A stretch of DNA of 64,000 nucleotides from Minisyncoccota bacterium (GTDB lineage: Bacteria; Patescibacteriota; Patescibacteriia; Patescibacteriales; UBA12465). Of the stretch, positions 1,572 to 57,324 are shown piece by piece. Every line of letters starts with the position of its first letter. Position 1 is the first letter of the stretch. A program made the translations under genes and the position numbers. The stretch lies in NCBI GenBank assembly GCA_021734405.1, contig JAIPJA010000002.1:1145-65144 (forward strand), written 5' to 3'. Below the pieces are notes generated by a model that was not told the origin of the DNA, searched no databases, and was given only the letters and a program-made list of their open reading frames with translations.

Positions 1572-1579
1572 ATGTATAT

Positions 1580-31688: not shown

Positions 31689-31696
31689 ATATTTGT

Positions 31697-32566: not shown

Positions 32567-32568
32567 CT

Positions 32569-33294
32569 ATGAGAGGAATTATTCTATCAGGAGGTTCAGG
32601 CTCTAGGCTTTCACCTCTGACAAAAATTACAAGTAAGCAATTGTTGCCGATATATAATAAACCCATGATTTATTATCCTTTACATACCTTAATTCAAGCA
32701 GGTATTAAAGAGATTTTAATAATTGTAGCTCCAGAAAGAGCAGGTGATTATTTAAATCTTTTAGGCTCAGGTAAGGATTTTGGGGTTAAATTTACTTATG
32801 AAATTCAAGATGAACCTAAGGGTTTGGCTGAGGCTTTTTTAATTGGAGAAAACTTCATAGATGATGAAGACGTGGCCATGATTTTAGGGGATAACATCTT
32901 TGAGGATAACTTTTCTAAGGAAATTAATAGTTTTAAAGGCGGGGGTAAAGTGTTTGTTAAAAAGGTACCTGACCCTGAACGTTTTGGTGTGGTTAAGTTT
33001 AATAAAGAAGAAAAAATTGAGACTATAGTGGAGAAACCAAAAAACTGGATAAGTGATTTTGCTGTTACTGGTCTTTATGTTTATGATAGCCGGGTAGTGG
33101 AAATTGCTAAAAGCATTAAACCTAGTAAAAGGGGAGAGTTAGAAATAACCGATATTAATAATTGGTACTTGCAAAAAAGTGAGTTAGAAGCAGCGAAGGT
33201 AGAAGGGCTTTGGCTTGATGCAGGTACTTTTGACAGTCTATTAGCTGCTCAAAATGTGGCTAAAGAGAAATTAGCAGATAAAATGAGTTTTTAA
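32569..33294 (+). CDS. rfbA: Glucose-1-phosphate thymidylyltransferase-like sugar nucleotidyltransferase (short form)
   Basis: Starts MRGIILSGGSGSRLSPLT (the track start at 32521 is an upstream extension). Contains the LGDNIF motif. Confidence 0.8.
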   Translation: MRGIILSGGSGSRLSPLTKITSKQLLPIYNKPMIYYPLHTLIQAGIKEILIIVAPERAGDYLNLLGSGKDFGVKFTYEIQDEPKGLAEAFLIGENFIDDEDVAMILGDNIFEDNFSKEINSFKGGGKVFVKKVPDPERFGVVKFNKEEKIETIVEKPKNWISDFAVTGLYVYDSRVVEIAKSIKPSKRGELEITDINNWYLQKSELEAAKVEGLWLDAGTFDSLLAAQNVAKEKLADKMSF

Positions 33295-33295
33295 T

Positions 33296-34246
33296 ATGAG
33301 TATTACTGCTGGGTTTATAACTTACAATAAAGACAGTTTAAAATATCTGCCTTATTTTCTGCCTAGTTTAAAAAAAGCTTTAGAGTTTGATGCGCAAGCT
33401 AGAATTTTAATGGTTGATAATAGCGAGAATTTTAGCTACAACTTGGATTATGTGCAAAAAAATTATCCCAGCATTGAAATTATATCCAGTGGATCTAATT
33501 TAGGTTTTGCCAAAGCTTATAACTTAATGATTAAATCAGCCTCTAATTCTTTGGCTGATTATTTTTTTATTATAAACCCAGATACTTTAATTACATCTCA
33601 AGCAATTTCTTTATTAAAACAAGCTTTAGAAGCAGATCCTTCTTTAGCCGCTGTCAGTCCTAAGATTTTTAACTGGCCTTTCCCTAAGGTAAGTTTTGGT
33701 CCTAAAATAGATAGTTTAGGTATTATTGAAAAAAAAGGACTAAGATTTATAGACAAAGCTCAAGGTGAGTTTAATAGAGAGAGTTTTAGTAAAGAAATTT
33801 TAGCGCCTTCAGGAGCGGCTGGTCTTTTTCGCTTAGAGAGTTTGAAGGCAGTAAAGAGTAGTTATGGTTACTTTGATGAACGCTTTTTTCTCTACAAAGA
33901 AGATGTTGATTTAGCCTATAGAATGAAACTAAAAGGTCAAAAAACTATGACAGTCTTAGAAGCACAAATAGCCCATGACAGAAGTTTAAGCTCTAAAAGC
34001 AGTAAGTTTCTCTTCAGTTTTAAAGGTAGGGACAAACAAAGTCGTTTTGGTCGTAGCCAGTCTTTTATAAATCAGCACTTACTTTATTGTAAATATTTTC
34101 ATCTACAAAGTTTTAGTTCTAAACTGATTATAGTCTTTAGAATTATAGCTATGTTTATTTTTGCTTTAGTTAAGGAGAGGTTTTTGTTGAAAAATTATGC
34201 TAAAATTATTACAATAAAGAAGGAGATTAAAAAAGCAGGAATTTAA
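33296..34246 (+). CDS. Family 2 glycosyltransferase (rhamnosyltransferase-like)
   Basis: N-terminal GT-A fold pattern (VDNSEN, NLGFAKAYN, NPDT). Confidence 0.75.
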   Translation: MSITAGFITYNKDSLKYLPYFLPSLKKALEFDAQARILMVDNSENFSYNLDYVQKNYPSIEIISSGSNLGFAKAYNLMIKSASNSLADYFFIINPDTLITSQAISLLKQALEADPSLAAVSPKIFNWPFPKVSFGPKIDSLGIIEKKGLRFIDKAQGEFNRESFSKEILAPSGAAGLFRLESLKAVKSSYGYFDERFFLYKEDVDLAYRMKLKGQKTMTVLEAQIAHDRSLSSKSSKFLFSFKGRDKQSRFGRSQSFINQHLLYCKYFHLQSFSSKLIIVFRIIAMFIFALVKERFLLKNYAKIITIKKEIKKAGI

Positions 34247-34269
34247 GCCTGATTTTAGTTTATAAAAAT

Positions 34270-36528
34270 ATGAATTATAAGTATTATTTGCGTATTTTAC
34301 AGGTAGGAAGTTGCTTGGCTGTGTTAAGTTTATTATTGTTTTTTTCTAACATCTTTTTTCCTTTTATTGGTTCAAAGCAGTTAACTTTTAACATTATTGT
34401 GGAAATTTTAAGTGCTGTTTCTTTAGTTTTTTTAATTAAATATCCTCAGTTTAGACCAAAATTTAATTTAATAAGTTATTTTTTGTTAGCTTATTTAGGA
34501 GCAATTTTAGTTTCTACTTTTTTTAGTTCAGATTTTCTAATTAGCTTCTTTAGTAATGCTGAGAGAATGTTTAGTTTTTGGCAGATTTTACATTTAGTTT
34601 TATTTTACTTTATTTTACAGATCTCTTTTAGAAGCTGGCAGGAGTGGCGGTGGTTGTTTTTAAGCTCTTTGGCTGTGGCTTTTATTATGAGTGTTTATAG
34701 TTTTTACAATCTTAAGCCGGGATCTTTATTAGGTAATGAGGCTTATTTTGCCGCTTTTTTAATTTTCAACCTTTATTTTGCTTTAATTTTTATAGTTAAA
34801 GATTATAAACCTTATAAATGGGTTTATTTAGCTTTTTGGGCTTTTTTCATTCCTGCTTTTGTCGCTGCTGATATTACTGGGGCATTTATAGGTTTAGGGG
34901 CTAGTTTATTTATAGGCCTTATTTTAGTAGCTGTTTTTTATAAAAACAAGCTGTTGAAGTTAAGCTCAATTATTTTGTCAGTTTTAATTGTAGCCATTAT
35001 TGCCTTATCTTTTAGTTTTCCCCAAGCTTCTTTTGTGAAGAACAATAAGGTTTTAAGGCAAATTTCTTGGCAAAAAAACACTTTTCAAACCAGACTTTTA
35101 TCTTGGCAAGCAGCTTGGCAAGGTTTTTCAGATAACCCCGTAGTTGGGGTTGGTTTTGGTAATTTCACCCCCACCTTTGATAAATATTTTGAGGCTGAGT
35201 TTTATAACCATGCACCTAATGAAACTCGCTTTGATAGAGTGCATAATAATCTGCTAGAAGTTTTAGTTACTACTGGGCTTTTGGGAATTATTCCTTATTT
35301 AGCTATTTTTGTTCTTATCTTTATCTATTGGCTGAAGTTATTTATTTATTATAAGAAAAATTATCCTGGTTTTCTACGTTCTTCTTTATCTTTAGTTTTG
35401 TTAGTTATATTATCTGCTTTCGGTGCTTACTTTATCCAAAACTTAAGTATTTTTGACACCTTATCGGTGTTTATGGCTTTTATGATTTTATTAGCTTATT
35501 TTAACCATATAAAAGCTAATAAAGAGCAGTTTTTACCTCAGGAAAAAAATTATAAATATAAAGAGCTGGAAGCAGAAGCTAAAAGAAAACAAGTTGACTG
35601 GTTGCTTATTCCTTTGCTACTGATATTTTTAGCTATAGCTTATTGGTTTAATGTTAGACCTATGCAGTCTTTTGTTATGGGCATTTCAGGTTATAAACAA
35701 ATTTTAGCTGGACAAATTGTGCCTGGTCTAGAGACTTACAAGCAAGGTTTAAAAATAAAACATCCTTTTCAAAGAGACATGTATTATGCTGTTACTTTCT
35801 TAGCCGCTCAAGACACTCAGGGGTTATTTAATGGTTTAAGCCAAGAGGAAAAAATAAATTCTTTAGAGACTTTATTAAACTTTAATGCTGAACTTTTAGA
35901 AATATCTCCTGAAAACAATGCCTACTTCTTAAATCGAGCTTATTTATATAATAAATTAGCTTCTGTCTATAGTGAGGACAATGATAATTACCAAAAATAC
36001 ATGAGGTTAGCTCTAGAGAATGTAGACAAGGCTATTTTAACTAGTCCTAATAGAGTTGATACTTATTGGCTTAAAGGACAGTTGCTTATAAACTTAGGAG
36101 AAAAAGAGCAAGGTTTAGAAAATTTTCTTCAGGCTATTAGTTTAAATCCTGACTATAGCAAATCATATTGTCAAGCTAACCAAGCCTATTTAGTGGTTGA
36201 TAAAAAAGAAGAGGCCTGGCCATTTATGGATAAATGCTTAGAAAAAGGCGGCGTTTCTTATTTAAACAATAGCCCCATTTTAGCTTTAGCTGTTAATCAT
36301 TATATTGAGCAAGAAAATCATGAAAAAACCGCTCAAGTCTATGAGCGTTATGCTAAAATTAACCCCAGTCAAGAAAATTGGATGAATTTAGCTAAACTTC
36401 AAGCTACTTTAAGTAATTGGGAAAAAGCTGAAAAATATGCTTTAAAAGCTTTAGAGTTAACCCCGGAGTCAGATAAAGAATCAGTTGAGTTATTTTTAAA
36501 GATTGTTAGAAGTAAGCAAGTTCAGTAA
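34270..36528 (+). CDS. O-antigen ligase/polymerase-like polytopic membrane protein with a C-terminal TPR domain
   Basis: About 12 TM helices with a Wzy_C-like loop (NPVVGVGFGNF...HNNLLEVL), then TPR-like repeats across the last ~300 aa. Confidence 0.7.
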   Translation: MNYKYYLRILQVGSCLAVLSLLLFFSNIFFPFIGSKQLTFNIIVEILSAVSLVFLIKYPQFRPKFNLISYFLLAYLGAILVSTFFSSDFLISFFSNAERMFSFWQILHLVLFYFILQISFRSWQEWRWLFLSSLAVAFIMSVYSFYNLKPGSLLGNEAYFAAFLIFNLYFALIFIVKDYKPYKWVYLAFWAFFIPAFVAADITGAFIGLGASLFIGLILVAVFYKNKLLKLSSIILSVLIVAIIALSFSFPQASFVKNNKVLRQISWQKNTFQTRLLSWQAAWQGFSDNPVVGVGFGNFTPTFDKYFEAEFYNHAPNETRFDRVHNNLLEVLVTTGLLGIIPYLAIFVLIFIYWLKLFIYYKKNYPGFLRSSLSLVLLVILSAFGAYFIQNLSIFDTLSVFMAFMILLAYFNHIKANKEQFLPQEKNYKYKELEAEAKRKQVDWLLIPLLLIFLAIAYWFNVRPMQSFVMGISGYKQILAGQIVPGLETYKQGLKIKHPFQRDMYYAVTFLAAQDTQGLFNGLSQEEKINSLETLLNFNAELLEISPENNAYFLNRAYLYNKLASVYSEDNDNYQKYMRLALENVDKAILTSPNRVDTYWLKGQLLINLGEKEQGLENFLQAISLNPDYSKSYCQANQAYLVVDKKEEAWPFMDKCLEKGGVSYLNNSPILALAVNHYIEQENHEKTAQVYERYAKINPSQENWMNLAKLQATLSNWEKAEKYALKALELTPESDKESVELFLKIVRSKQVQ

Positions 36529-36550
36529 GGCTTTTATTTTTTATTTTCTT

Positions 36551-36559
36551 TGCTATAAT
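36551..36559 (+). promoter_or_regulatory. Extended -10 element TGCTATAAT
   Basis: Exact TGCTATAAT upstream of the gene starting at 36632. Confidence 0.45.
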
Positions 36560-36631
36560 AAACAAATAGTTAAAGGTATTTAATAATTAACAAATAATAG
36601 TAAATAATTAATAAAATTAATCAATAATCTT

Positions 36632-36913
36632 ATGAGTTTAGAATCACAAAAATTTACACCAGAAACCGGAAATGAAGAAATTAAGAAGATTGAGGCATAT
36701 ATGTCTGATGTAGAAAATTATATTATTAGTCTTGGTTTTACGATAGAAGCTAATAAAGACCAAATTAAGGAAGCATTAGAAATTTTAATTAGTCAGCACG
36801 AAGATCCTGAGCAAGCCACTGCTATTTTAAAGCAATTAATTTCTTTTCTTGAACCTGGTGATAGTTTAGCAGGTAGTGTTAATATGATGAAAGAAGATCC
36901 TGCTGATTTTTAA
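36632..36913 (+). CDS. Small acidic hypothetical protein
   Basis: 93-aa ORF with no motif recognised. Confidence 0.45.
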   Translation: MSLESQKFTPETGNEEIKKIEAYMSDVENYIISLGFTIEANKDQIKEALEILISQHEDPEQATAILKQLISFLEPGDSLAGSVNMMKEDPADF

Positions 36914-36928
36914 TAATTTTTTGTTTTT

Positions 36929-37831
36929 ATGTCTATAAAAAGCAAACATCATCCAGCAAAATTTACTTTTCTATACCTTCTATCTTTAGCTTCACTAGTT
37001 ATGGTGGCTTTGGGGGTAGGTATGATTGTATTTGAGTTTATCAACAAATATGTGCCGGACTTTTTAAGTTATTCTTATCAGGGTAATTTTTCTGATGCTC
37101 AAGTTAAATTTGCTTTTTCAGCTCTGTTAATTTCTGCCCCCATATACTTTGTTTGTTCTTATTTTCTGGAAAAGAATTTAAAGAAGGGAAATTTAAGTTT
37201 ATCAGCTTCACTTAGAAAATGGTTACTATATCTAATTATATTTACAGCTTCAGTGGTTATTATGGGCTGGTTAATAGGGCTATTAAATAATTTTTTAGAT
37301 GGTGAGTTAAGTCTTAGATTTGCTTTAAAGGCTTTGACTGCTATTGTTATTTCAGCTTTAGTTCTAAGTTTCTATATTTTTGAAATTAAAAGAACGCAAA
37401 CCCAAATAACCCCTTTAAGCTTTAAGATTTATGGAATTATATTTATAGCAGTAACTTTAACAGCTTTAGTTTTAAGCCTACTTATCATGGAGTCACCTCA
37501 GAAAGCACGTCAAAACAAGTTAGATAATTTAATTTTAAATAATTTCAATCAGATATCTATAGCTGTAGATAGTTATTACAGCGAAAAAGGAGAGTTACCA
37601 GACAGCTTAGAAGCGCTTGATCAGAAGTTTTTAGGTCCTAAGCAATTACTGGACCCACAAACTCAGGAACCTTTTGGTTATAGGGTTATAGATAAAGATA
37701 GTTATGAGCTGTGTGCTAACTTTAGAACTAATACTGAAAATGATGCTGATAGTTTAAGATTTAACTATAGAGATGAACATAAGGCTGGCTGGCAGTGTTT
37801 AGAAAGAGAAGTAGTGCCCATGAAACCTTAA
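36929..37831 (+). CDS. Four-TM membrane protein (DUF5671-like) with a pilin/pseudopilin-like C-terminal domain
   Basis: TM pattern plus a C-terminal block ...IAVDSYYSEKGELPDSLEAL...DPQTQEPFGYRV...YELCANF resembling type IV pilin-like globular domains. Confidence 0.5.
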   Translation: MSIKSKHHPAKFTFLYLLSLASLVMVALGVGMIVFEFINKYVPDFLSYSYQGNFSDAQVKFAFSALLISAPIYFVCSYFLEKNLKKGNLSLSASLRKWLLYLIIFTASVVIMGWLIGLLNNFLDGELSLRFALKALTAIVISALVLSFYIFEIKRTQTQITPLSFKIYGIIFIAVTLTALVLSLLIMESPQKARQNKLDNLILNNFNQISIAVDSYYSEKGELPDSLEALDQKFLGPKQLLDPQTQEPFGYRVIDKDSYELCANFRTNTENDADSLRFNYRDEHKAGWQCLEREVVPMKP

Positions 37832-37880
37832 AAAATTAAAAAAAGCTGAATTTTTTCAGCTTTTTTTTATTTCTATATTT

Positions 37881-39173
37881 ATGAAAATAACTAATAAAGT
37901 AACTATTTTAATATTTTTAATAATCTTAATTTCTGCTGGCTTTTTTTATTTTAAAAATATCCAGGCTGAAGATAATGAGGAAAAACTAGGTGAGGCAGAG
38001 ACAGTCTTAGAAAGTGAAAATGATGAAAACAAGACTCCAAAAGACATTGTTCAAATTATACAAGTAGAAGATGGTCAAACTTATGGCGAGCTCATGAAAA
38101 GCTCAGGTATATCAGTTAGTCTGGCTAATGAAATTTATGAGTCTTCTTTAGAAACCTATGATTTAGCTAGTTTAAGAGCTGGTAAAGAAATTAAATTGTT
38201 TTTTGATCCAGGGAGCAAAGAATTAAAAAGTTTGCTCTACAGTATTGATTCTGAGTCTGAGTTAGTGGTAAAAAATTTAAATTATTTTCCAACTGTAGCA
38301 GATTTAAAGGCTTCTAGCACTGAGGAAGTTGAAGTAAAGGAAAATATTTGGCAGGCAGAAGTTAAAGCCATTGATTATGAAGTAAAGGTAGTTGAAAAAG
38401 AAGGTGAGCTAGCGTCTAGTCTATATAACTGGGCACTGGAAAATAATGTTGATGAAAGAGCGATTATAGAGATGGCTAATGCTTTTCAATGGAGTTTAGA
38501 TTTCGCCATGGATCCTCGCGTTGGTGATACTTTCAAGTTTATTTATGAAGAAAGATATTTAAATGGTAATTATATTATGCCTGGCCAGCTTCTAGCTGCT
38601 AAATATGTTAATGAGGGGGAAAACTATGAAGTATATTATTTTGAAGAAAGTGAAGATAATAAAGGCTATTTTGACAGAGAAGGAAACTCTGTGCAAAAAA
38701 TGTTTTTGAAAGCCCCGGTAGCTTTTAAATATATTTCTTCAGGCTTTACTACAGGACTAAGATATATTAGCGCTTTTAATATTTCTACTGGTCATAGAGC
38801 CATTGACTACGCAGCCGCTTATGGCACCCCTATAAGGACTGTAGGCGATGGAACGGTAGTTATGGCTAAATATAATGGTTCTTATGGCAATATGGTTTCT
38901 GTTAGACACAATGGAACTTATAGTACCAACTATGGCCATATGTCAAAGTTTGCTGTTAGCTACGGAGAAAAAGCAAAACAAGGAGATATTATTGGTTATA
39001 TAGGTTCAACAGGACTTTCTACTGGACCTCATCTTCATTATGAAATGGTTAAAAATGGAGTTAAAATTAATCCTCTTTTAGAGGTACTACCTCCAGGTGA
39101 ACCTATTAAAGAGGAAAACAAAGAAAGATTTTTTGAAAGCATTAAGTCTTGGCAAGAGAAGTTAAATAACTAA
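37881..39173 (+). CDS. M23-family metallopeptidase (peptidoglycan endopeptidase)
   Basis: HRAIDYAA and GSTGLSTGPHLHYE motifs, with an N-terminal TM anchor. Confidence 0.85.
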   Translation: MKITNKVTILIFLIILISAGFFYFKNIQAEDNEEKLGEAETVLESENDENKTPKDIVQIIQVEDGQTYGELMKSSGISVSLANEIYESSLETYDLASLRAGKEIKLFFDPGSKELKSLLYSIDSESELVVKNLNYFPTVADLKASSTEEVEVKENIWQAEVKAIDYEVKVVEKEGELASSLYNWALENNVDERAIIEMANAFQWSLDFAMDPRVGDTFKFIYEERYLNGNYIMPGQLLAAKYVNEGENYEVYYFEESEDNKGYFDREGNSVQKMFLKAPVAFKYISSGFTTGLRYISAFNISTGHRAIDYAAAYGTPIRTVGDGTVVMAKYNGSYGNMVSVRHNGTYSTNYGHMSKFAVSYGEKAKQGDIIGYIGSTGLSTGPHLHYEMVKNGVKINPLLEVLPPGEPIKEENKERFFESIKSWQEKLNN

Positions 39174-39324
39174 ATATATTTTAAATTTTGTTTATAAGGC
39201 TACTCATAAGTTAGCTTGTTAGTCAGAGTCTTATAAATCTTCCGATAATGTACATTATTTGTTATTATTAAAGTATAAAGTTTAGATAAAAACTAGTTAT
39301 ACGCAATTCAAAAAATATTTTTCT

Positions 39325-39539
39325 AACGGAGAATAAGGAATGATAGGCTTTCAAAGAGGAATAAATTTGATTTTTTCTAAAAAAAGGAGGGGGATAATAT
39401 GGTGTTTTCTCCACTTCTTTCCGAAAACGATTTATTTATAAATTGAAAAAGGTAACAAAACTTATATAATACAAATAACTTTTAATTTATTATGGAGGAT
39501 TTAATGACTCAGAAAAATTTATTAAAAAAAGAAAAGATA
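39325..39539 (+). repeat. Copy A of a ~170-215-bp repeat covering the cassette leader plus the first ~16 codons
   Basis: Aligns with 40270-40441, apart from a ~28-nt and a ~12-nt insertion in copy A. Includes AACGGAGAATAAGGA, ATGATAGGCTTTC, hairpin 39404-39428 and AACTTTTAATTTATTATGGAGGAT. Confidence 0.85.
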
Positions 39540-40262
39540 AAGGCTTTCTCTATAAAAATATCAAAAAAACTTAATCATAGTATTTGGTTGAAACTTCTGG
39601 TTTTTATTCTACTTTTCATTTTCTTGGTTATAGTGTCCACATTATATCAACCAATTGCTGAGCTAGGCGGAAGGCTCTTTGAACCCATCTCTCTCAAAAC
39701 TTTCTTGGATACATTGACTCCTCCAGAAATGTACACTTTTTTACCATATCTAATCGTTCTCCTATTTGTTCCATTTTCAGGAATATTTTTTGCCTTTAAT
39801 CGTAGAATTAGCGTGGTTCAAGTCATTTCGTTTTATCTTGCCATTATATGTATGTGGCTGATTGCTTTGGCAATTTATATTGTTTTTCCGACAACTGCTT
39901 CGGAAGTTATGATTACTTCATATGACGAATACGCAGCATATTATTTGATATATGAAGGAGCATTCCAAACACTGCAAAACTTATATGGAGCGAGTACTCC
40001 TCTTGGAGATTTTCCTAGTCTACATGTAGCACCACTTATGTTGATGGGTATTTTCCTTCGCAAACATTGGAAGACATTGTTTTGGATATTCTTACCTATC
40101 GCATTTATTGGTGCGACTGGAACATATTTATTGAAATTTCACACGGTTATAGGATTTTTAGGCGGAGTAGCACTGGGATATTTTGGTTATTATGTCTTGT
40201 ACGAAAAAGTCGTTCATAAGTATCTCAGTAAATTTTTTATAGAAAAGGAAAGCCTATCATAA
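39492..40262 (+). CDS. Polytopic membrane protein, PAP2_3-like (FPSLH motif), with a borrowed N-terminus
   Basis: 256 aa with DFPSLHVAP and a degenerate distal H motif. The first 19 aa (MEDLMTQKNLLKKEKIKAF) are nearly identical to those of the next, unrelated gene. Confidence 0.6.
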   Translation: MEDLMTQKNLLKKEKIKAFSIKISKKLNHSIWLKLLVFILLFIFLVIVSTLYQPIAELGGRLFEPISLKTFLDTLTPPEMYTFLPYLIVLLFVPFSGIFFAFNRRISVVQVISFYLAIICMWLIALAIYIVFPTTASEVMITSYDEYAAYYLIYEGAFQTLQNLYGASTPLGDFPSLHVAPLMLMGIFLRKHWKTLFWIFLPIAFIGATGTYLLKFHTVIGFLGGVALGYFGYYVLYEKVVHKYLSKFFIEKESLS

Positions 40263-40297
40263 GAGTTAGAACGAAAAATAAGGAATGATAGGCTTTC
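40248..40297. repeat. Complete boundary site: 13-bp inverted arms GAAAGCCTATCAT / ATGATAGGCTTTC separated by 24 nt
   Basis: Left arm 40248-40260 (encodes the last codons and stop of the upstream gene), right arm 40285-40297. A right arm alone lies at 39340-39352 and a left arm alone at 41618-41630. Confidence 0.85.
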
Positions 40298-40441
40298 AGA
40301 GTGGAATATAATGGTGTTTTCTCCACTCCGTTCCGAAAACAATTTGTTTTTTAAAGACAAAACTTATATAAGAATTATAACTTTTAATTTATTATGGAGG
40401 ATTCAATGACTCAGGAAAAATTATTAAAAAAAGAAAAGATA
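40270..40441 (+). repeat. Copy B of the leader/N-terminus repeat
   Basis: See copy A. Contains hairpin 40316-40340. Confidence 0.85.
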
Positions 40442-41533
40442 CTCGCATTTGATTATCTTAGAACCTTTGTAATTATTCTTGTAGTTTTACATCATGCAAT
40501 TTTAGCATATGTGACATTTATTGATTATTCTGGGGAGTATCTTGTTGCAGATATTGTTCCATCTACCAATTTATTAAATCCAATATTTGATACTGCAAAA
40601 TCTTGGGTTTTTGATATAATTCTTACAATAAATGACCAGTATTTCATGAGTTTGCTATTCCTCTTATCTGGATTGTTTATATATAATAGCTACGAAAGAA
40701 AAGGAACAAAGAAATTCTTTAAGGATAGATTTGTAAGATTAGGGGTTCCTTTTTTACTTTTTGTACCAACAATAATTCCTATTGCTTATTATTTTGCACA
40801 TTTGCAATGGTCAATAAATGGAAATACTGCCCTAAGCTTTTTCGGTTTTTGGTTAGAATATGCTAAAGCTGGTTTTTTTGCATCAGGTCCTCTTTGGTTT
40901 TTATGGGTACTTCTTTTATTTAACCTTATAGTAGTTTTATTATTCTTCAGACCTAAAATAGAAAATAGAATAAAAAATTTAAAAATATTCGAACATCCAG
41001 TATATCTTTTTATAGCCTTATTGTTAATTTCCACTATATCGTTTTTTCCATTATTGTTGATCTTTGGAGGTTCATGGATCGGTGTTGGTCCATTTACTGT
41101 TCAAGGCTCTAGAGTATTGCATTATTTTATTTTCTTTTTATTTGGGACATTTTTAGGAATGTATGGTCTTGAAAAAACTATGTTCAAACCAAATTCAAGT
41201 TTCACAAAATTTTGGTGGATTTATTTAATTATTGGTTTAATCTCTTTTCTATTCTTTTTCCCACTATCTTGTGTATCTCTTAGTTTTGCTACAATAGGAT
41301 TTTTCCTGCGTTATACTAAAAAAAGAAATTTATTAATGGATAGTTTGAATAAAAATGCTTTCGGAATTTATATTTTTCATTATATGTTTATAGCAGGACT
41401 ACAATTTATTTTACTCGGAATCAATATATCAGCAATTACTAAAGGTATTATAGTCTTTTTTGGAGCCTTAGTTTTGAGTTGGGGCTTCAGTTCTGTATTT
41501 CGCAAAATCCCTATAGTCGGAAGAATAATATAA
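40394..41533 (+). CDS. Acyltransferase family 3 (OafA/YrhL-like) membrane protein
   Basis: 379 aa with about 10 TM helices and the N-terminal signature FDYLRTFVIILVVLHH. Confidence 0.8.
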   Translation: MEDSMTQEKLLKKEKILAFDYLRTFVIILVVLHHAILAYVTFIDYSGEYLVADIVPSTNLLNPIFDTAKSWVFDIILTINDQYFMSLLFLLSGLFIYNSYERKGTKKFFKDRFVRLGVPFLLFVPTIIPIAYYFAHLQWSINGNTALSFFGFWLEYAKAGFFASGPLWFLWVLLLFNLIVVLLFFRPKIENRIKNLKIFEHPVYLFIALLLISTISFFPLLLIFGGSWIGVGPFTVQGSRVLHYFIFFLFGTFLGMYGLEKTMFKPNSSFTKFWWIYLIIGLISFLFFFPLSCVSLSFATIGFFLRYTKKRNLLMDSLNKNAFGIYIFHYMFIAGLQFILLGINISAITKGIIVFFGALVLSWGFSSVFRKIPIVGRII

Positions 41534-41540
41534 CTTTCAA

Positions 41541-41589
41541 GTTTTGAAAAATGAAATTCACCCCTAACCCCTCTTTCATTTTTCAAAAC
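41541..41589. repeat. Perfect 16-bp inverted repeat hairpin with a C-rich 17-nt loop
   Basis: GTTTTGAAAAATGAAA (41541-41556) pairs with TTTCATTTTTCAAAAC (41574-41589). The loop is TTCACCCCTAACCCCTC. No T-run follows on either strand. Confidence 0.8.
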
Positions 41590-41715
41590 GAAAAAAATCA
41601 AATTTATAAGAATTGAAGAAAGCCTATCATGAGAATTAAGAACGAAAAATATTTTTTGAACTCACTCCGCTACGCTTCGTGCCACGCTGCGCTCTCCTCC
41701 TTTCAGTCGTCGGGG

Positions 41716-41817
41716 CGTATAACAAGGGATATACGGTTCAGCCCTCGGCTCGGGCTTCACTCAAATTTTTCTTCCACTTCGTTCCAGAAAAACTTCGTAT
41801 ATCCCTAACGTTATATT
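41716..41817 (+). repeat. attC-like site 1: R''-L'' ... L'-R' imperfect inverted repeat, about 100 bp
   Basis: CGTATAAC-A-AGGGATATACG (41716-41735) pairs with CGTATATCCCT-AAC-GTTATA (41796-41815). This gives a 6-bp R pair (TATAAC/GTTATA), an asymmetric 1x3 internal loop and an 11-bp L pair. Confidence 0.6.
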
Positions 41818-41871
41818 AAATTACAAGGGTAGGCCAATAACTTTATATATTTTATAATTTTTTAATTTATT

Positions 41872-42531
41872 ATGATTGAAGCATTAATATTTGATATGGA
41901 TGGTGTTTTAGTAAAATCTGAAGGTGCTATTTCTACATCATTTAATAAAGTGCTAGAAAAATACGGTGTAAAACTTAACCCAGAAAACAAGAAAAAATAT
42001 CTAGGGCGTTCGTTAAGAGATCAATTACAGATGATGAAAGAAGAATATCCTCAAATACCAAAAGAATTAAACATTCAACAATTTAGCAAAGAAGCGTTTC
42101 AATATCAACTAGAATTATTAAAAGAAGAGCTAGTACCTAAAATTTTAATAAAAGAATTCATTAAAAAAGCTAAAGAGAACAATATAAAAATTGCAGTAGC
42201 AACTTCAAGTTTAAGATATAGAGCAGAAATATTCTTAAAATTAATCGATATTTTTAATGAACTAGATATATTGCTAACCTCAGAAGAGGTTAGCAATCAT
42301 AAACCACATCCAGATATTTTTCTAGAAACCGCAAAAAGATTAGAGGTTTTACCTGATAACTGTGTAGTAATTGAAGATGCAAAAAATGGAATTGATGGCG
42401 CTCAAGCTGCAAAAATGAAAACTATAGGAGTAATCACAGAGAACCGTTCTATAGAGGAATTAAAACATGCTGATTTGATAGTTAATAGTCTCACAGAATT
42501 AAATATTGAAAAAATTAAAAAATTATTCTAA
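41872..42531 (+). CDS. HAD-superfamily hydrolase (beta-phosphoglucomutase/phosphatase-like)
   Basis: Motif I FDMDGVLV, motif II ATSS, and a C-terminal EDAKNGIDGAQAAKM. Confidence 0.8.
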   Translation: MIEALIFDMDGVLVKSEGAISTSFNKVLEKYGVKLNPENKKKYLGRSLRDQLQMMKEEYPQIPKELNIQQFSKEAFQYQLELLKEELVPKILIKEFIKKAKENNIKIAVATSSLRYRAEIFLKLIDIFNELDILLTSEEVSNHKPHPDIFLETAKRLEVLPDNCVVIEDAKNGIDGAQAAKMKTIGVITENRSIEELKHADLIVNSLTELNIEKIKKLF

Positions 42532-42603
42532 TCTAAAGGTCGACCCTTGTAAATCTGAAATTTCCCTTCGGGACGTTGCACTAAATTTCAGCCCTGAGGG
42601 GAA

Positions 42604-42696
42604 TATAACAAGGATTATGAGGTTACGAAGTCTTGCAGACTTCTCCACCCAAATTGCTCCCTACGGTCGCAACTTCTCATATCCCTGACGTTATCT
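42604..42696 (+). repeat. attC-like site 2, homologous to site 1
   Basis: TATAAC-A-AGGATTATGAG (42604-42621) pairs with CTCATATCCCT-GAC-GTTAT (42676-42694). The upstream TTTCAG...GGGG block is shared with site 1. Confidence 0.6.
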
Positions 42697-42728
42697 GAAA
42701 TCCATTTTTTAACTTTTTAAATAACACT

Positions 42729-42890
42729 ATGAGCAAAACAATAAAAATCTCATTGCTTATTATCGCTGGCTTGTTAGTACTTAACGGATTAATAAACATT
42801 TCTGATAATGGAAGTATTTTAGCTTATGACATTACCGCTATTTTATCTGGGATTGGATTTACTATTGTTGCTTTATCTAAGAAAGCATAA
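42729..42890 (+). CDS. Possible 53-aa two-TM membrane peptide (last cassette)
   Basis: MSKTIKISLLIIAGLLVLNGLINISDNGSILAYDITAILSGIGFTIVALSKKA. Below the track cutoff. Begins 35 nt after attC-like site 2. Confidence 0.4.
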   Translation: MSKTIKISLLIIAGLLVLNGLINISDNGSILAYDITAILSGIGFTIVALSKKA

Positions 42891-43141
42891 AAGTTTAATA
42901 TCATTATTAGTGTATATATAAGTTTTGAGTCTTTTCGATATTCTTCCTAAGTTTCAAAATCCCACCCTTTATAAAGATAAAGCAGGTGGTTTTTTTAATT
43001 CAACTAAATTAATCCATGTTTAAAGCCTATTAAAGCTTTTTTTGTATATAGCAATATTTTTTTTAATTTGTAAACTAGTTTTTAATTGTTGCTTTTGGTA
43101 TTATGATAGTAAAGAGATGCTAAAAAATATTTAAATTAATT

Positions 43142-46100
43142 ATGAGCTTTGTCCACCTCCACAATCATACCCACTATTCTTTACTTGATGGCTTAACTAA
43201 GATACCTGAGTTAGTAAAAAGAGCTAAAGAGCAGGGCTCCCCAGCTGTGGCTATTACTGATCACGGTAATATGTACGGGGTTATTGACTTTTATCAAACC
43301 TGTAAAAAGGAAGGCATTAAACCCATTATAGGGGTAGAGGCTTATTTAGCTAGAGGCAGTCGTTTTGATAAGGCTACTAGAGATGATGCTAGAAACTATC
43401 ATTTAGTGCTTTTAGCGAAAAATAATACTGGTTACAAAAACCTTATTAAACTAACCACTAAAGCGCATTTAGAAGGTTTTTATTACAAACCTAGAATAGA
43501 TTGGGAAATTTTAAAAGAACATAGTGAAGGTTTAATTGCTATGAGTGCTTGTTTGGGTGGAGAAATGGCTCAACTAATTAGATCTGGAAACTTAGAAACA
43601 GTTAAAAAAAGAGCTTTAGAGTATAAAGAGTTGTTTGGTGAAGATAATTTCTATTTAGAATTAATGGATCATCCTCAACTTGAAGGCCAAGCTGAAATTA
43701 ATGAAACTTTAATCAAATTAGGTAAAGAGCTAAAAATACCACTAGTAGCTACTAATGATATTCATTATTTAAAAACTGAAGATGATGAAGCTCAGGATAT
43801 ATTACTTTGTTTGCAAAATAAAAAGAAAAGAAACGATAGTGATCGCATGAGCATGTTAGGGGAAGATTATTCTATGAAGAGTAATCAAAAGATGGTGGAG
43901 GTTTTTTCTCATGTACCTGAGGCTATAGAAAATACTGTAAAAATAGCAGAAAAATGTAATGTAGAAATTGAATTAGGTAAAACCCAATTACCTTATTTTG
44001 AGGTGCCAAGTGACTATAATGAAAATTCATATTTACGTTACCTTTGCGAAGAAGGACTTAAGAAAAGATTTGCCTGTGACTATAATAGCGCTACTCAAGA
44101 GCTAAAAGAAAGAATGGATTATGAATTAAAGGTTATAGAGAAAATGGGTTGGCCTTCCTACTTTTTAATTGTGGCTGATTTTGTTAATTGGGCCAAGGAC
44201 AATAAAATAGTGGTAGGTCCAGGCAGAGGTAGTGCGGCCGGTTCTTTAGTTTGTTATTTAACTGGTATTACTAATATTGACCCTTTGCATTATGATTTGC
44301 TATTTGAAAGATTTTTAAATCCAGAAAGAGTTTCCATGCCTGATATTGATATGGACTTTGCCGATACTAGAAGAGATGAAGTTATTCAATATGTAGCTGA
44401 TAAATATGGCCATGATAGAGTGGCGCAAATAATTACTTTTGGAACTATGGCGGCTAGAGCGGCTGTTAGAGATGTAGGTAGAGTTCTAGATGTGCCTTAT
44501 GAGTTTTGTGATAAACTTTCCAAGGCTATTCCGATGTTTTCCAAAATTAAAGAAGCTTTAAAAATAGTTCCAGAGTTAAAAGAAGCTTATGACAATGACT
44601 CTCAAGCTAGACAAATTTTAGACTACGCTATGCGTTTAGAGGGTGTTTCCAGACATAGCTCCACCCATGCTTGCGGGGTACTTATAACCAAAGATGCTTT
44701 AGATGAGCATGTGCCACTTCAATATGCTTCTTCTTCAGATAAAAGTATTGTTTCTCAATATTCCCTACATCCAGTAGAAGACTTAGGGCTTTTGAAGATG
44801 GATTTTTTAGGTTTAAAAAACTTAACCATTATTGAGTCAGCTTTGAGGATTATAAAAAACACTAGAGGAGAAGACATTGATATTGAAAGTATACCTTTAA
44901 ATGATGAGTTAGCTTATAACTTATTTCAAGAAGGTAATACTACTGGAGTTTTTCAATTTGAGTCCTCAGGCATGAAAAGATATTTACGAGAGTTAAAGCC
45001 TAGTGAATTTGAAGATATTATTGCTATGGTAGCGCTATATCGTCCCGGTCCTATGGAGTGGATTCCTGACTATATTTCTGGTAAGCATGGACAGAAAAAA
45101 GTTTCTTACCTTCATCCTAAGCTAGAGCATATATTAGACAAAACTTACGGAGTAGCTATTTATCAAGAGCAAGTTATGCAAATTGCTCGAGATTTAGCTG
45201 GTTTTACTATGGGCGAGGCTGATGTGCTTAGAAAAGCCATGGGTAAAAAGATTCCTGAGCTTTTAGCTAAGCAAAAAGAAAAATTTGTTGAAGGTTGTGT
45301 TAAAAATCAAATTCATAGTGAGTTGGCAGAGAAAATATTTTCATTTATTGAACCTTTCGCTGGTTATGGTTTTAACCGTAGTCATGCCGCTTGTTATGCT
45401 TTAATTGGTTATCAAACCGCCTATTTAAAAGCTCACTGGCCAGTGGAGTTTATGGCGGCGTTACTGACAGCTGATCAACACAACACTGATAGAATAGCGG
45501 TAGAAATAGATGAATGTAGAAAAATGCAGATAAATATTATGCCTCCAGATATTAATGAGTCTTATGATTCTTTTACAGTCGTAACCAGTGGTACTACTGA
45601 AAACAAATTAGCCAAAAAAGATGAAAAAGTAGATACTATTCGCTTTGGTTTAAATGCTATAAAAAACGTAGGTGAGCATATTGTAGATGTTATTATTGAA
45701 GAAAGAAAAAAGAATGGCAGGTATAAGGATATTTATGAATTTTTAGAAAGAATAACTGATAAAGATTTAAATAAAAAGTCTTTGGAAAGCTTAATTAAAT
45801 GTGGAGGTTTAGATAATTATGGTGATAGAGGTCAACTTTTATATAATTTAGAAACCTTATTAAAAATTAATAAAGAGTCTGCTCAAGAAAAAGCTAGTGG
45901 TCAAACTAGTTTATTTGGATCTGAAAATGGTTTTCAAATTAAAGCTCAACCTATTAAATTAGCTAATGGAGGTGAGCTTAGCCAAGCAGAAAAATTAAGC
46001 TGGGAAAAAGAGCTTTTAGGTCTATATATCTCTGAGCATCCTTTTTCTGAATTTAAGGAAAAACTAAATGGCTATATAGTTAGTCTGAGTCAATTAAAAG

Positions 46101-46762
46101 AACATTTAGATAAAGATGGGGTAAAAACGGCTGGAGTTATTAGTTCTATTAAAAAGATTATTACTAAAACTAACCAATCTATGTTATTTGTGAAAATAGA
46201 GGACGCGGTTTATAATGTAGAGGTTTTAGTTTTTCCTCGACTTTTAGAAACAAGCCAGGATATTTGGCAGGAAGGACAGGTGGTTTTATGTGAAGGTAAG
46301 GTGTCTGATAAAGATCAGGAAATAAAGCTTTTAGCTAATAAAGCTACAGTTTTAAAAGTGGAAACTTTAGAAGCTGATCTGCAAAAATTTAAAAAATCTC
46401 CGATTATAAACAAGGCTAAAAGATTTGCTAATGGCTTTAAAAAATTTGGACCTAAGCCTGCTTATCAAAATCCTAGCTCTACTAATTTTAATTCCAGCCC
46501 TAAAAAAGAGATAATAAAGACAGAGCTTAATAGTTTTTCTCAGCCCTTTAAGATAATTATAAAAACCGCTTTAAGTCAAGCAGAGAGTTCTGAGCTTTTA
46601 GAAATTTTACAACAATTTCCAGGAAGTAGCGAAGTTTATTTGTTTGAACATTATAGCGACAATATTATTAAAACCAATTTTAAAGTAGATAATTCCTTAT
46701 TTTTAATAGCTAAGATAAAAAAACATTTTCCTGAAAAAATTAAAGTTGTCGAGTTGCAGTAA
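43142..46762 (+). CDS. dnaE: DNA polymerase III alpha subunit
   Basis: 1206 aa with an N-terminal PHP domain (HLHNHTHYSLLDG), conserved palm/fingers blocks and an OB fold. Confidence 0.95.
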   Translation: MSFVHLHNHTHYSLLDGLTKIPELVKRAKEQGSPAVAITDHGNMYGVIDFYQTCKKEGIKPIIGVEAYLARGSRFDKATRDDARNYHLVLLAKNNTGYKNLIKLTTKAHLEGFYYKPRIDWEILKEHSEGLIAMSACLGGEMAQLIRSGNLETVKKRALEYKELFGEDNFYLELMDHPQLEGQAEINETLIKLGKELKIPLVATNDIHYLKTEDDEAQDILLCLQNKKKRNDSDRMSMLGEDYSMKSNQKMVEVFSHVPEAIENTVKIAEKCNVEIELGKTQLPYFEVPSDYNENSYLRYLCEEGLKKRFACDYNSATQELKERMDYELKVIEKMGWPSYFLIVADFVNWAKDNKIVVGPGRGSAAGSLVCYLTGITNIDPLHYDLLFERFLNPERVSMPDIDMDFADTRRDEVIQYVADKYGHDRVAQIITFGTMAARAAVRDVGRVLDVPYEFCDKLSKAIPMFSKIKEALKIVPELKEAYDNDSQARQILDYAMRLEGVSRHSSTHACGVLITKDALDEHVPLQYASSSDKSIVSQYSLHPVEDLGLLKMDFLGLKNLTIIESALRIIKNTRGEDIDIESIPLNDELAYNLFQEGNTTGVFQFESSGMKRYLRELKPSEFEDIIAMVALYRPGPMEWIPDYISGKHGQKKVSYLHPKLEHILDKTYGVAIYQEQVMQIARDLAGFTMGEADVLRKAMGKKIPELLAKQKEKFVEGCVKNQIHSELAEKIFSFIEPFAGYGFNRSHAACYALIGYQTAYLKAHWPVEFMAALLTADQHNTDRIAVEIDECRKMQINIMPPDINESYDSFTVVTSGTTENKLAKKDEKVDTIRFGLNAIKNVGEHIVDVIIEERKKNGRYKDIYEFLERITDKDLNKKSLESLIKCGGLDNYGDRGQLLYNLETLLKINKESAQEKASGQTSLFGSENGFQIKAQPIKLANGGELSQAEKLSWEKELLGLYISEHPFSEFKEKLNGYIVSLSQLKEHLDKDGVKTAGVISSIKKIITKTNQSMLFVKIEDAVYNVEVLVFPRLLETSQDIWQEGQVVLCEGKVSDKDQEIKLLANKATVLKVETLEADLQKFKKSPIINKAKRFANGFKKFGPKPAYQNPSSTNFNSSPKKEIIKTELNSFSQPFKIIIKTALSQAESSELLEILQQFPGSSEVYLFEHYSDNIIKTNFKVDNSLFLIAKIKKHFPEKIKVVELQ

Positions 46763-56462: not shown

Positions 56463-57324
56463 CAACCACTAAGCGATCTTTTTGGCTTAAGTCTTTAATT
56501 ATGGTGATTTCTGCTTTAGGCAGAATTTTTTTTATATAATCACTTAATTCTGGCTTTTGTTGAGGATTTATTTCCATTAAAACTTCTATTGATTTAGCTT
56601 TTAAGTCTTTAACTTCTTTGATTAACTTCTTATAGTAGTACAATCCTTTATCTTTAGCTATTAGAGCCTGTTTAGGCTCTTTTTTAATACTAGCTGAGCT
56701 TTGCCAAATACTTTCTTCTACATAAGGCAAATTAGCCATAATAGTAATACTTTCCTTTTTGGCTATATCCAAGTTAGATTCTATTACTGCTTTTAGTAAG
56801 TTAGCTGGTTTAAAAATTATTTTTTTATCTAAATTATATTTTTTAGCATTTTTTTTTGCTACTTTTAAAGCTTTAGCGGAGATATCAGTAGCTAGAAGCA
56901 GGGTGTCAGAGTCAAGGTTTTCAGCTTTCAGGTTTTTTATTAAGCTAATTATTAAACAACCTGAACCAGTGCCAATATCTATTATGGCTTTATTTTTAAA
57001 GTCTTGGTTTTTTAAATAATCTATAAATAATTCTGATTCGGGGCGGGGGATTAATACGTTTTTATTTACCAAAAATTCTAGATTATAGAAACCTTGTTGT
57101 TTGTTTAAATAAGCTAAAGGTACTCCTTTTAATCTTTTTTTTAACCAATAGCTAGTTTTTAAAACTTGAAAATAGTTTAAATTTTTCTCATAAGCAGTGA
57201 TAAGTTGGGCTGAGTTTAAGTCAAGAGTAGATTCTAAAAGTTTTTCAGCTTCAAAAACAGGCTGTGAAAAACCAGCCTGTTGAAATTTTTTACTTATTTC
57301 TTTTTTAAGCTGAAGAACTTTCAT
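56446..57324 (-). CDS. prmC: Release-factor glutamine methyltransferase
   Basis: SAM site IIDIGTGSG and the substrate motif NLPY (a variant of NPPY). Overlaps the prfA end. Confidence 0.8.

Follow-up and report, generated by a model that had tools for sequence, protein, structure and literature searches.

The window analysed here, a stretch of 64,000 nucleotides (64 kb) from the genome of a Minisyncoccota bacterium, probably harbours two integron-type mobile gene cassettes, which are located between the gene for an M23 peptidase and dnaE and would be moved by a tyrosine recombinase resembling both IntI and XerA. The genome has its affinities with the Patescibacteria (candidate phyla radiation, CPR) and is related to Falkowbacteria. 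Cassette A carries two genes, encoding a PAP2-superfamily membrane protein (gene 1) and an acyltransferase of family 3 (gene 2), and cassette B carries gene 3, encoding a HAD-family hydrolase; each cassette ends in a structured site of ~100 nt that resembles an attC site (Table 1). The original prediction for this region centred on a 13-bp arm, ATGATAGGCTTTC, which occurs in inverted orientation around genes 1 and 2 and was regarded as the terminus or crossover site of each gene module. The arms are instead one of three mirrored blocks of a conserved cassette shell and not recombination sites, as the mobile unit starts 43 nt to the left of the left arm and ends 180 nt to the right of the right arm.

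Structured sites and cassette boundaries

Approximately 100 structured elements were extracted from the loci, and a plain MAFFT alignment was prepared for 45 of these sites. All follow the layout NNNTAAC, A, an 11-nt stem half, hairpin 1, CACCCA(A/T)ATT, hairpin 2, AAC(T/A)TC, the second stem half, 3-4 nt and GTTRNNN, with TAAC and GTT being invariant in the alignment. RNAalifold applied to this alignment predicted three helices, in which 13 of the 18 pairs display compensatory changes. A covariance model subsequently identified 151 sites in 100 loci; among 130 aligned sites, 94.6% of cells were paired and 17 of the 18 pairs had changed on both sides, percentages that are inflated because this alignment is fitted to the model, and the associated E-values are rough. 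The covariation score of the 130 sites was 0.657, as opposed to 0.139 for shuffled alignments and 0.07-0.12 for slid partners. Furthermore, when sites were defined by motif only and pairing was not imposed, the distribution was bimodal, with 10-11 of 11 stem pairs formed in 66 of 96 sites and the remainder having the appearance of chance hits. In attC sites, the recombinogenic bottom strand is marked by an unpaired central spacer and by extrahelical bases; between the R box and the long stem of the present sites there is a constant asymmetry of 1 nt versus 3-4 nt, and no bulge is present within the stem. In the window, the covariance model detects exactly two sites, both on the + strand, at the ends of cassettes A and B, respectively; the first scores 90.2 bits, although both sites were members of the training set. 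The hairpins of site 1 are linked by CAC(T/C)CAAATT, which is followed by AACTTC. None of the families of Rfam 15 matched anywhere in the window at the gathering threshold, and a resemblance of GCGTATAAC...ATACGGTTC to domain V of group II introns was dropped as the stem partners lie elsewhere.

The limits of the cassettes were deduced from adjacent sites. In 66 adjacent site pairs, the 5 nt following GTT were compared with the reverse complement of the 5 nt preceding the AAC of the downstream site, yielding a mean of 4.1 matches out of 5 (38 pairs being perfect), against a mean of 2.97 out of 5 for the AAC box of the same site. Such complementarity to the downstream AAC box is the signature expected if cassettes are cut immediately after the G of the GTT box, TTNNNN then belonging to the cassette whose end has the complementary NNNNAA-C. 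Both cassettes of the window obey this rule: TTATACGC, with which cassette A begins, is reverse-complementary to the AAC box GCGTATAA(C) of that cassette (41715-41723; the site begins GCGTATAAC), while TTATAT at the start of cassette B complements ATATAA(C) in its own box at 42603-42609. At the left junction of cassette A, homology to the L108 array, in which the first arm-type cassette carries a closely related PAP2 gene, begins exactly at position 39296. The motif AAACTAG^TT (the caret marks the boundary here and below) is common to this junction and to the region upstream of dnaE.

A conserved shell and movement of the cassette as a unit

The shell was examined in a sample of at least 120 contigs that were matched by the 18-mer AAGGAATGATAGGCTTTC in a metagenome scan and were thus selected on an exact 5' arm. 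Most of these share the same long context (GTTATACGCAATTCAAAAAATATTTTTCTAACGGAGAAT, the arm, then AAAGGGGAATAAATTTGATTTTTTC...GTGTTTTCTCCACTCCGTTCCGAAAAC...), a minority being chance matches in GC-rich or unrelated contigs, and the GC content of the host contigs ranges from 24 to 49%. The arm is therefore not restricted to one segmental duplication, a possibility that the original prediction had raised against itself, but accompanies unrelated cargo throughout this sample. Conservation begins at G^TTATACGC, with unrelated DNA upstream, in more than 80 contigs, and more than 30 closed elements consist of a 5' shell, 1-3 co-oriented cargo genes (0.4-3.8 kb), a 3' shell, a GC-rich segment and a structured site of ~100 nt. 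The consensus of the 3' shell reads ...AAAAAATCAAATTTAT, ~10 nt, the inverse arm, ~13 nt and GAAAAATATTTTTTGAA, and the 3' shell of cassette A is 86-97% identical (82% in the weakest case, L151) to that of 24 contigs with unrelated cargo. In many cassettes the 5' shell extends as far as the start codon and includes TTGAAA-16-TATAAT and GGAGG; the copy of the former in cassette A is a predicted sigma-70-type promoter with 11 of 12 matches in a promoter scan. The cargo comprises defence systems (type I and type II restriction-modification, GmrSD) as well as PPDK_N/PEP-utilizers proteins, a P-type ATPase with DUF302, a pyridine-nucleotide-disulphide oxidoreductase with a VTT-domain protein, GNAT, Cass2, peptidase S51 and RibD_C. 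Judged by their domains, the PPDK_N/PEP-utilizers cargo would be rifampicin-phosphotransferase-like and the oxidoreductase MerA-like. Neither a transposase nor an integrase was present inside the cargo region of the closed elements, and the sole minus-strand open reading frame (ORF) of at least 100 aa in these elements overlaps a longer gene on the + strand.

A 3.6-kb cassette for type I restriction-modification is 99.9-100% identical in L096, L107, L129 and L192, in which it is preceded by four different left flanks. In L129 the right flank differs also, and the break occurs exactly after ...CCCAAACG^ (...AAACG^). These comparisons directly demonstrate movement of the cassette as a unit, which extends from G^TTATACGC to the G of the GTT box. 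Arm-type cassettes follow either the sites of other cassettes or recombinase-proximal ones, and they are also located in numerous unrelated contexts, AT-rich or coding, the first base always being the same. The L129 copy (766-4430) is a lone arm-type cassette with no attC-like site on either side, its left flank ending in ...AATTTAATAG^ and its right flank beginning with ^ATGAACGGG, and its insertion resembles, by analogy, the attG type at a G-A-T triplet. Additionally, arm-type cassettes are present in two IMG/VR contigs classed as viral, L203 and L216, the cargo being small ORFs in one and a type IIG-like restriction-modification gene in the other; these contigs may be misclassified, or else the cassettes extend to phages. 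Annotated phage and plasmid collections contained no match to the 3' shell plus site.

The original prediction had called for a search of relatives for empty sites, and the closest available genome lacks the entire block between the M23 peptidase gene and dnaE. In this genome, whose DnaE is 84% identical, the order Wzy, small ORF, DUF5671, M23, dnaE is retained and the gap between M23 and dnaE is only 155 bp; as M23 is directly followed by dnaE, the block corresponding to positions 39174-43141 is absent there. A Logan contig of the same strain (SRR12088350_10064; L001, L002 and L230) ends at ~41576, 43 nt past gene 2 and within the 3' shell, a break that is expected if the shell is present in multiple copies in that sample. 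In a survey of 80 Patescibacteria dnaE loci, neither an attC-like site nor a recombinase of the family described below was detected.

Arms, fused shells and a predicted extended hairpin

Several observations of the original prediction are retained. The 13-mer is present as exact matches at 39340-39352 and 40285-40297 (+ strand) and at 40248-40260 and 41618-41630 (- strand), with no fifth exact copy on either strand of the 64-kb window, in which ~0.002 exact copies of one given 13-mer would be expected by chance (own arithmetic). The two central copies constitute a palindrome with a 13-bp stem and a 24-nt spacer, and related flanks of the pattern AACG(G/A)A(G/A)AATA adjoin the arms (AACGGAGAATAAGGA at 39325-39339, AACGAAAAATAAGGA at 40270-40284 and AACGAAAAATA at 41641-41651). 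The C-terminus of the gene 1 product (E-S-L-S-stop) falls inside the left arm of this palindrome, with the stop codon at 40260-40262. The assertion that the arms are not ordinary terminators is likewise upheld, since the loop of 24 nt on a 13-bp stem is not followed by a T run and a scan for intrinsic terminators was negative at every arm.

The repeats are, however, longer than the arms. Two further exact inverted blocks are present, of 17 nt (TTCAAAAAATATTTTTC, with its inverse at 41644-41660) and of 16 nt (ATAAATTTGATTTTTT, with its inverse at 41592-41607), and the leaders of genes 1 and 2 are alike over ~200 bp plus the first 12-13 codons. To the 3' side of the right arm lies a GC-richer structured element (41661-41816), a relative of which is found 3' of gene 3 (42603-42696). 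The GC-rich segment at the start of this element also precedes some other sites in a variant form, CCACGCTGCGCTCTC, and has no partner in the predicted fold.

When the 3' end of cassette A is joined to its 5' end, the predicted single-stranded fold has an energy of -58.4 kcal/mol, compared with -28.1 +/- 3.8 kcal/mol for shuffled sequences (z ~ -8). The folded circular junction contains helices of 16 bp (AAAAAATCAAATTTAT/ATAAATTTGATTTTTT), 13 bp (the arms), 17 bp (GAAAAATATTTTTTGAA/TTCAAAAAATATTTTTC) and 9 bp (GCGTATAAC/GTTATACGC), followed by the stem of the site and its two hairpins. In this predicted fold the outer half-sites of the original prediction are the two halves of a second tier of an interrupted palindrome of ~310 nt, between which the cargo is carried. 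Thus, in a circular cassette, or in tandem arm-type cassettes, the three blocks (17, 13 and 16 bp, in mirror order) would extend the attC hairpin to ~310 nt, and this outer stem would serve either in folding or extrusion of the site or in protein binding.

It is possible, though we regard it as doubtful, that the blocks are mainly protein-binding or insulating elements, such as an operator for a regulator, a site for an accessory factor or a read-through barrier; the cassette model is compatible with this proposal, in which only the role of the arms is at issue. Sequence conservation is seen in the three blocks and not in the intervening linkers, which vary and are non-complementary. The blocks lie upstream of the predicted cassette promoter, and where an inverse arm deviates from the consensus, no compensating change is present in the 5' arm of that cassette. 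Moreover, 57 of 111 attC-like sites are devoid of any shell, and the blocks are therefore not required for the site. Conversely, the mirror order and matched spacing of the blocks give the one long hairpin described above, no candidate binding protein is encoded among the cassette cargo, and no T-tract terminator is present at the arms.

The middle palindrome has a different origin from that proposed originally, in which it separated two independently bounded gene modules. In its spacer, the 3'-shell linker ...GAACGAAAAATA runs straight into AGGA, the linker of the 5' shell, so that ~260 nt comprising the right-hand outer block (TIRa'), the GC-rich segment, the attC core and the left-hand outer block (TIRa) are absent. 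In a complete junction this missing segment lies between the imperfect direct repeats AACGAAAAATA and AACGGAGAATA. The covariance model detects no attC-like site at the middle palindrome, and since this palindrome is without a recombination site, the PAP2 and acyltransferase genes constitute one fused cassette. The same short arm-arm junction is present in four tandem cases (the window, L108, L185 and L087); only in L115 does a tandem arm-type pair retain a site between the arms, and shells were found on both sides of none of 111 model-detected sites. We infer that the central part was lost by slippage across the hairpin or by an equivalent palindrome-stimulated deletion. Common descent of the short junctions followed by exchange of cargo is a possible alternative. 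In L108, the PAP2 unit and the junction are followed by a short-chain dehydrogenase gene in place of the acyltransferase gene; the homology runs through the second leader to the start codon, and the point of exchange is therefore not the palindrome. The first 12 codons shared by genes 1 and 2 fit with gene conversion between the adjacent leaders.

The 5' shell additionally contains a copy of hairpin 2 of the site, GTTTTC-TCCACTYCKTTCC-GAAAAC, at 39404-39430 and again at 40316-40342. In front of it lies ATAATATGGTG, which is the junction motif CACC(C)ATATT in inverse orientation, and the copy may represent a fossil half-site. A leader peptide in the same part of the shell (ATG GTG TTT TCT...) was considered and rejected, as neither the frame nor the ATG is maintained among copies.

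The recombinase and its arrays

The structured sites form co-oriented arrays, with up to 7 sites in L108 (downstream of a divergent recombinase gene), 4 in L225/L226 and 2 in L229. A tyrosine recombinase gene adjoins the array in 14 loci, usually in divergent and sometimes in the same orientation. This association is also observed from the side of the enzyme, as two of three genomes chosen by recombinase similarity alone carry site arrays directly upstream of the divergent recombinase gene (4 sites in a Candidatus Parcubacteria genome and 2 in another). The recombinase family has more than 6600 homologs at E < 1e-30, the named hosts in NCBI records being Patescibacteria, Parcubacteria and Komeilibacteria. 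Of ten recombinases, six pass the cut-off of 220 bits of NF040815 (the XerA-type NCBIfam model, 'tyrosine recombinase/integron integrase'), for which the scores range from 204 to 245 bits, the other four scoring 204-211. All ten remain below the cut-off of 265 bits of the integron integrase model TIGR02249, which they match in two pieces at 182-226 bits. The best solved relative, Vibrio IntI4 (2a3v), is similarly aligned in two pieces, with residues 204-211 of the query in place of residues 191-240 of IntI4; as these 8 residues replace ~50, the IntI-specific additional domain, which in integron integrases is located around patch III, is missing. The second-best solved relative is XerA (5hxy). 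The junction nearest to the recombinase gene reads TTCGTATAGAAACGA^GTT; it has no upstream hairpin half and in this respect is attI-like.

The left flank of the window cassettes was compared with five attI regions and displayed no similarity above that of shuffled sequences, the only resemblance being the short match ATA.AAAC.A^GTT. In the absence of both a recombinase gene in the window and an attI-like left flank, the two cassettes lie away from a platform, in a state similar to that of a CALIN, i.e. a cassette cluster away from an integrase (PMC9024848), with 2 sites. The only weak hidden Markov model match to a recombinase in the window, at 56446-57324, was discarded since it encodes a PrmC-type methyltransferase.

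Individual arrays display peculiarities. The array-linked recombinase of L093 (292-1494) has an N-terminal extension of ~120 aa, and its gene has the orientation of the cassettes; the majority of the other recombinases are ~270-290 aa in length and divergent. In L229, the array next to the recombinase gene holds genes for a Y1 transposase (IS200/IS605 TnpA) and an HNH nuclease (6192-9200 and 16741-18105). In L108, an IS110-family transposase gene (DEDD_Tnp_IS110 and Transposase_20; 5118-6269) is present inside a cassette with PAP2 and dehydrogenase genes. IS1111-attC members of the IS110 family target integron attC sites.

The most serious rival to the cassette model, although an unlikely one, is that the modules are of the Xer/dif type, being moved by a housekeeping Xer recombinase at a double-stranded core (AACTTCGTATA, ~10 nt, TATACGCAATT) in the manner of pdif modules or of integrative mobile elements exploiting Xer (IMEX), with the hairpin being incidental. 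The properties of the enzyme are in keeping with this proposal: it lacks the IntI domain, none of the ten pass TIGR02249 while six pass NF040815, and it is encoded by a chromosomal gene for ~270 aa situated among housekeeping genes, with a large family of close homologs. Direct inspection furthermore reveals that the 3' end of the site together with the first 11 nt of the next cassette forms two imperfect inverted arms of 11 bp (9/11 in attC-like site 1), and recombinase-proximal sites contain the right-hand half only, TTCGTATA-N7-GTT. However, the two halves of the hairpin, upstream and downstream, display strong covariation in ~130 sites, which a double-stranded core would not need. The central region of dif-type sites is 6-8 nt in length, whereas here it would be 9-10 nt. 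Arrays are situated directly beside the recombinase gene, which in L229 is ~6 kb from dnaA and not at the terminus, and the best solved relative of the enzyme is IntI4.

Counter-evidence and the remaining alternatives

A number of observations weigh against integron-type cassettes. The recombinase is without the IntI-specific domain, which classical integrases need in order to act on folded attC sites, and no recombinase of this family is encoded in the 64-kb window, its presence elsewhere in the genome being assumed. The site is unlike a canonical attC in its continuous 11-bp stem, its three-way junction and its conserved single-stranded motifs. A G-T pair that is conserved on the top strand would be a C-A mismatch on the bottom strand, such that either strand may be the one that folds. 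The arms are conserved in sequence and not just in complementarity, as would suit a protein site as well as a stem, and the pairing percentages obtained with the covariance model are inflated as stated above. With regard to the insertion itself, the comparison genome is related only at genus level, such that loss of the block there is formally possible; in addition, the exact M23, PAP2 and acyltransferase proteins are recorded from one Logan contig (one sample) and the HAD protein from none.

Part of the original prediction was that the units are insertions or terminal inverted repeat (TIR) elements with cargo genes. The notion of site-specifically inserted, non-autonomous cargo modules has stood up to the comparison, but a TIR transposon, similar to a miniature inverted-repeat transposable element (MITE) with cargo, mobilised by a transposase in trans and with the arms inside TIRs of ~70 bp, is very improbable. 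The outer ends (39307-39376 and 41592-41660) do form an interrupted inverted repeat of ~70 bp, and the elements vary in cargo and encode neither a transposase nor an integrase. Nevertheless, the boundaries do not coincide with the repeats, as the mobile unit reaches 10 nt past the left repeat and ~150 nt past the right repeat, through the structured site; no target-site duplication was seen at the window, L129 or other junctions, no transposase is associated, and the co-oriented arrays lie beside a tyrosine recombinase.

Inversion, which was also part of the original prediction, is scarcely credible: perfect inverted 13-mers do surround each gene, as they would in an inverton or shufflon whose invertase used the arms to flip each gene, but the main cargo genes are on the + strand relative to the shell in all closed elements, the promoter lies inside the segment with the gene such that flipping would not switch expression, and no invertase is encoded nearby. 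Equally remote is a local segmental duplication without mobility, in which a leader/trailer unit was copied in tandem and the gene bodies diverged or were replaced. The near-identity of the two leaders and first 12 codons within the window speaks in its favour and does indicate local gene conversion; against it, other contigs have dozens of unrelated cargos enclosed in this same shell, PAP2 and acyltransferase 3 are unrelated protein families and the PAP2 unit of L108 is followed by a different gene.

Proposed mechanism and comparison with known systems

If the cassette model is correct, a Patescibacteria tyrosine recombinase encoded elsewhere in the genome would excise and insert the cassettes by recombination at the G^TT boundary of the GTT box, and the site of ~100 nt at the end of each cassette would act through its fold; the recombining strand and the chemistry of the reaction are surmised. 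The junction of a circular cassette A, from 41810 to 39297, would read ...TATCCCTAACG^TTATACGCAATTC (or ...CCCTAACG^TTATACGCAATTC), and the empty site would read ...AAAAACTAG^TTATAT... or ...^TTATCTGAAATCC. As the 5' shell includes a predicted promoter and a ribosome-binding site (RBS), a cassette could be expressed wherever it is inserted, including at sites outside integrons such as the present one. The shell may make the cassettes independent of a platform, which would explain the many landing sites other than attC across hosts of such differing GC content.

Canonical attC sites possess an AAC triplet, R and L boxes and extrahelical bases, and insertion at attG sites is also described (PMC12614218). 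The present system shares with integrons (sedentary chromosomal ones with homogeneous attC sites, e.g. the Vibrio cholerae repeats) a tyrosine recombinase beside a co-oriented cassette array, an imperfect palindrome with invariant AAC and GTT boxes at the end of each cassette, whose fold is kept while its sequence varies, and a G^TT boundary, such that the first bases of a cassette complement its own AAC box. Accessory, defence and resistance-like cargo and insertion outside the platform at simple G-containing sites are further points of resemblance. Unlike integrons, the recombinase has 8 residues at the position of the ~50 of IntI4 that include the IntI-specific domain, the site has an 11-bp continuous stem, an asymmetric loop of 1 x 3-4 nt, a three-way junction and the motifs CACCCA(A/T)ATT and AAC(T/A)TC, and one large cassette family has ~325 nt of conserved shell with a predicted promoter and RBS, which extends the palindrome to ~310 nt, whereas classical cassettes are mostly promoterless, depend on the promoter Pc of the platform and bear only 6 nt of the site at the 5' end. 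The host phylum also differs: full-text literature searches on integrons or attC in Patescibacteria, CPR and Parcubacteria returned only resistome surveys and general integron papers, and no published account of integrons in Patescibacteria was found.

The additional domain of IntI is treated as defining for integron integrases and as necessary for activity, and archaeal IntIs are reported to carry this domain and to be accompanied by canonical attC folds (PMC9668308). With archaeal integrons and XerA-type enzymes the present recombinases have in common the scores against NF040815, the relationship to XerA 5hxy and an occurrence in uncultured lineages with small genomes that are known from metagenome-assembled genomes (MAGs) only; they differ from archaeal IntIs in lacking the additional domain.

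The pdif modules of Acinetobacter plasmids have 28-bp double-stranded XerC/XerD cores in alternating orientation. Like these and other Xer-dependent elements, the cassettes are discrete cargo modules with short inverted recombinase-binding arms and no enzyme inside, and they are associated with an Xer-like recombinase, but they end in covarying hairpins of ~100 nt, have a single orientation and form arrays beside the recombinase gene. The ~70-bp interrupted inverted repeats near both ends and the non-autonomous nature of the cassettes are reminiscent of foldback or MITE-like elements; in contrast to the latter, the repeats are internal to the mobile unit and neither a target duplication nor an associated transposase is present.

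The logic of the integron is known, and what is new is the recombinase without an IntI domain, the site with its three-way junction, the shell that bears a promoter and extends the palindrome, and the host phylum. Folded-site cassette recombination would, if the model is correct, not need the IntI-specific domain, and the recombinase could represent an evolutionary intermediate between Xer and IntI. For CPR bacteria, which have tiny genomes and few recognised mobile elements, the cassettes would offer a general route for swapping defence and resistance-like genes. A search keyed to the IntI domain would probably miss these platforms, and MAG surveys may consequently undercount them; large MAG surveys may also have counted such arrays without describing them. 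We tentatively propose that the CPR possess their own integron-like lineage, with a recombinase between Xer and IntI, folded covarying sites and shelled, platform-independent cassettes around almost any cargo, and that the shell may itself make new cassettes. The occurrence of a standard shell around dozens of unrelated cargos makes cassette birth, an open question for integrons, directly testable.

Genes and minor features of the window

The coordinates of the cassettes and of the genes on either side are compiled in Table 1. Cassette B has no arms, and its gene is nevertheless preceded by a promoter/RBS module, AACTTTATATA...TTTTAATTTATTATG (41836-41874), that it shares with cassette A; the exact 15-mer TTTTAATTTATTATG is present in the window only upstream of the three cassette genes.

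Table 1. Cassettes, sites and flanking genes in the window (indented rows are parts of the feature above).
Feature	Positions	Strand	Remarks
M23 peptidase gene	37881-39173		Upstream neighbour of the cassettes
Left junction, host ...AAAAACTAG^TTATACGC...	39290-39303	+	Putative crossover between 39296 (G) and 39297 (T)
Cassette A	39297-41810	+	PAP2 and acyltransferase 3; ends match the consensus of >30 closed cassettes
5' shell, ~205 nt	39297-39503	+	Conserved in 74 distinct cassettes with differing cargo
 GTT-box half and GCAA			Start of the 5' shell
 TIRa, TTCAAAAAATATTTTTC	39307-39323		
 Linker with AACGGAGAATA	39325-39335		
 Arm copy 1	39340-39352	+	Inner block of the 5' shell
 ATAAATTTGATTTTTT	39361-39376		
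 Copy of attC hairpin 2	39404-39430		
 TTGAAA-16-TATAAT	39443-39470		Predicted promoter
 GGAGG	39494-39498		
Gene 1, PAP2-superfamily membrane protein, 252 aa	39504-40262	+	PF14378, E 9.8e-08; 90.6% identical in DNA to the foremost arm-type cassette in the L108 array
Short palindrome (inverse arm, 24 nt, arm)	40248-40297		Junction at which two shelled units are fused
Second, shortened 5' shell (arm, hairpin-2 copy, RBS)	40285-40405	+	Without the ATAAATTTGATTTTTT block; homologous to L108 up to 40398
Gene 2, acyltransferase family 3, 375 aa	40406-41533	+	PF01757, E 1.8e-32; first 12 codons copy gene 1
3' shell, ~120 nt	41540-41660	+	
 AAAAAATCAAATTTAT	41592-41607		
 Inverse arm	41618-41630		
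 Linker with AACGAAAAATA	41641-41651		
 TIRa', GAAAAATATTTTTTGAA	41644-41660		
GC-rich segment, CTCACTCCGCTACGCTTCGTGCCACGCTGCGCTCTCC...	41661-41716	+	Before the AAC box; conserved in arm-type cassettes
attC-like site 1	41717-41816	+	AAC box GTATAAC 41717-41723; 11-bp covarying stem; two hairpins; GTT box GTTATAT 41810-41816
Cassette B	41811-42690	+	HAD hydrolase; promoter/RBS module, no arms
Gene 3, HAD-family hydrolase	41872-42531	+	PF13419, E 7e-36
attC-like site 2	42603-42696	+	Covariance model 74.8 bits (site in training set); also found in the motif-only scan, with the stem paired
53-codon ORF			Downstream of the cassettes, before dnaE
dnaE	43142-46762		Downstream of the cassettes

Upstream of the cassettes, positions 30387-39173 are occupied by a cell-envelope cluster that encodes a Mur ligase, an RmlD-like epimerase, a nucleotidyltransferase, a GT2 glycosyltransferase, an O-antigen-ligase-like Wzy_C/TPR protein and the M23 peptidase. 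The cassettes lie at the end of this cluster, and the products of their PAP2 and acyltransferase genes may act on the same surface polymer. Insertion of cassettes would explain the strain-variable presence of 3.5-4 kb of envelope-modifying genes (PAP2 phosphatase, O-acyltransferase and HAD) beside a cell-surface polysaccharide cluster. Finally, a degenerate arm-like 13-mer, AAAGCCTATTAAA (43022-43034; 10 of 13 matches), is found in a small hairpin before the promoter region of dnaE and probably represents a chance resemblance.

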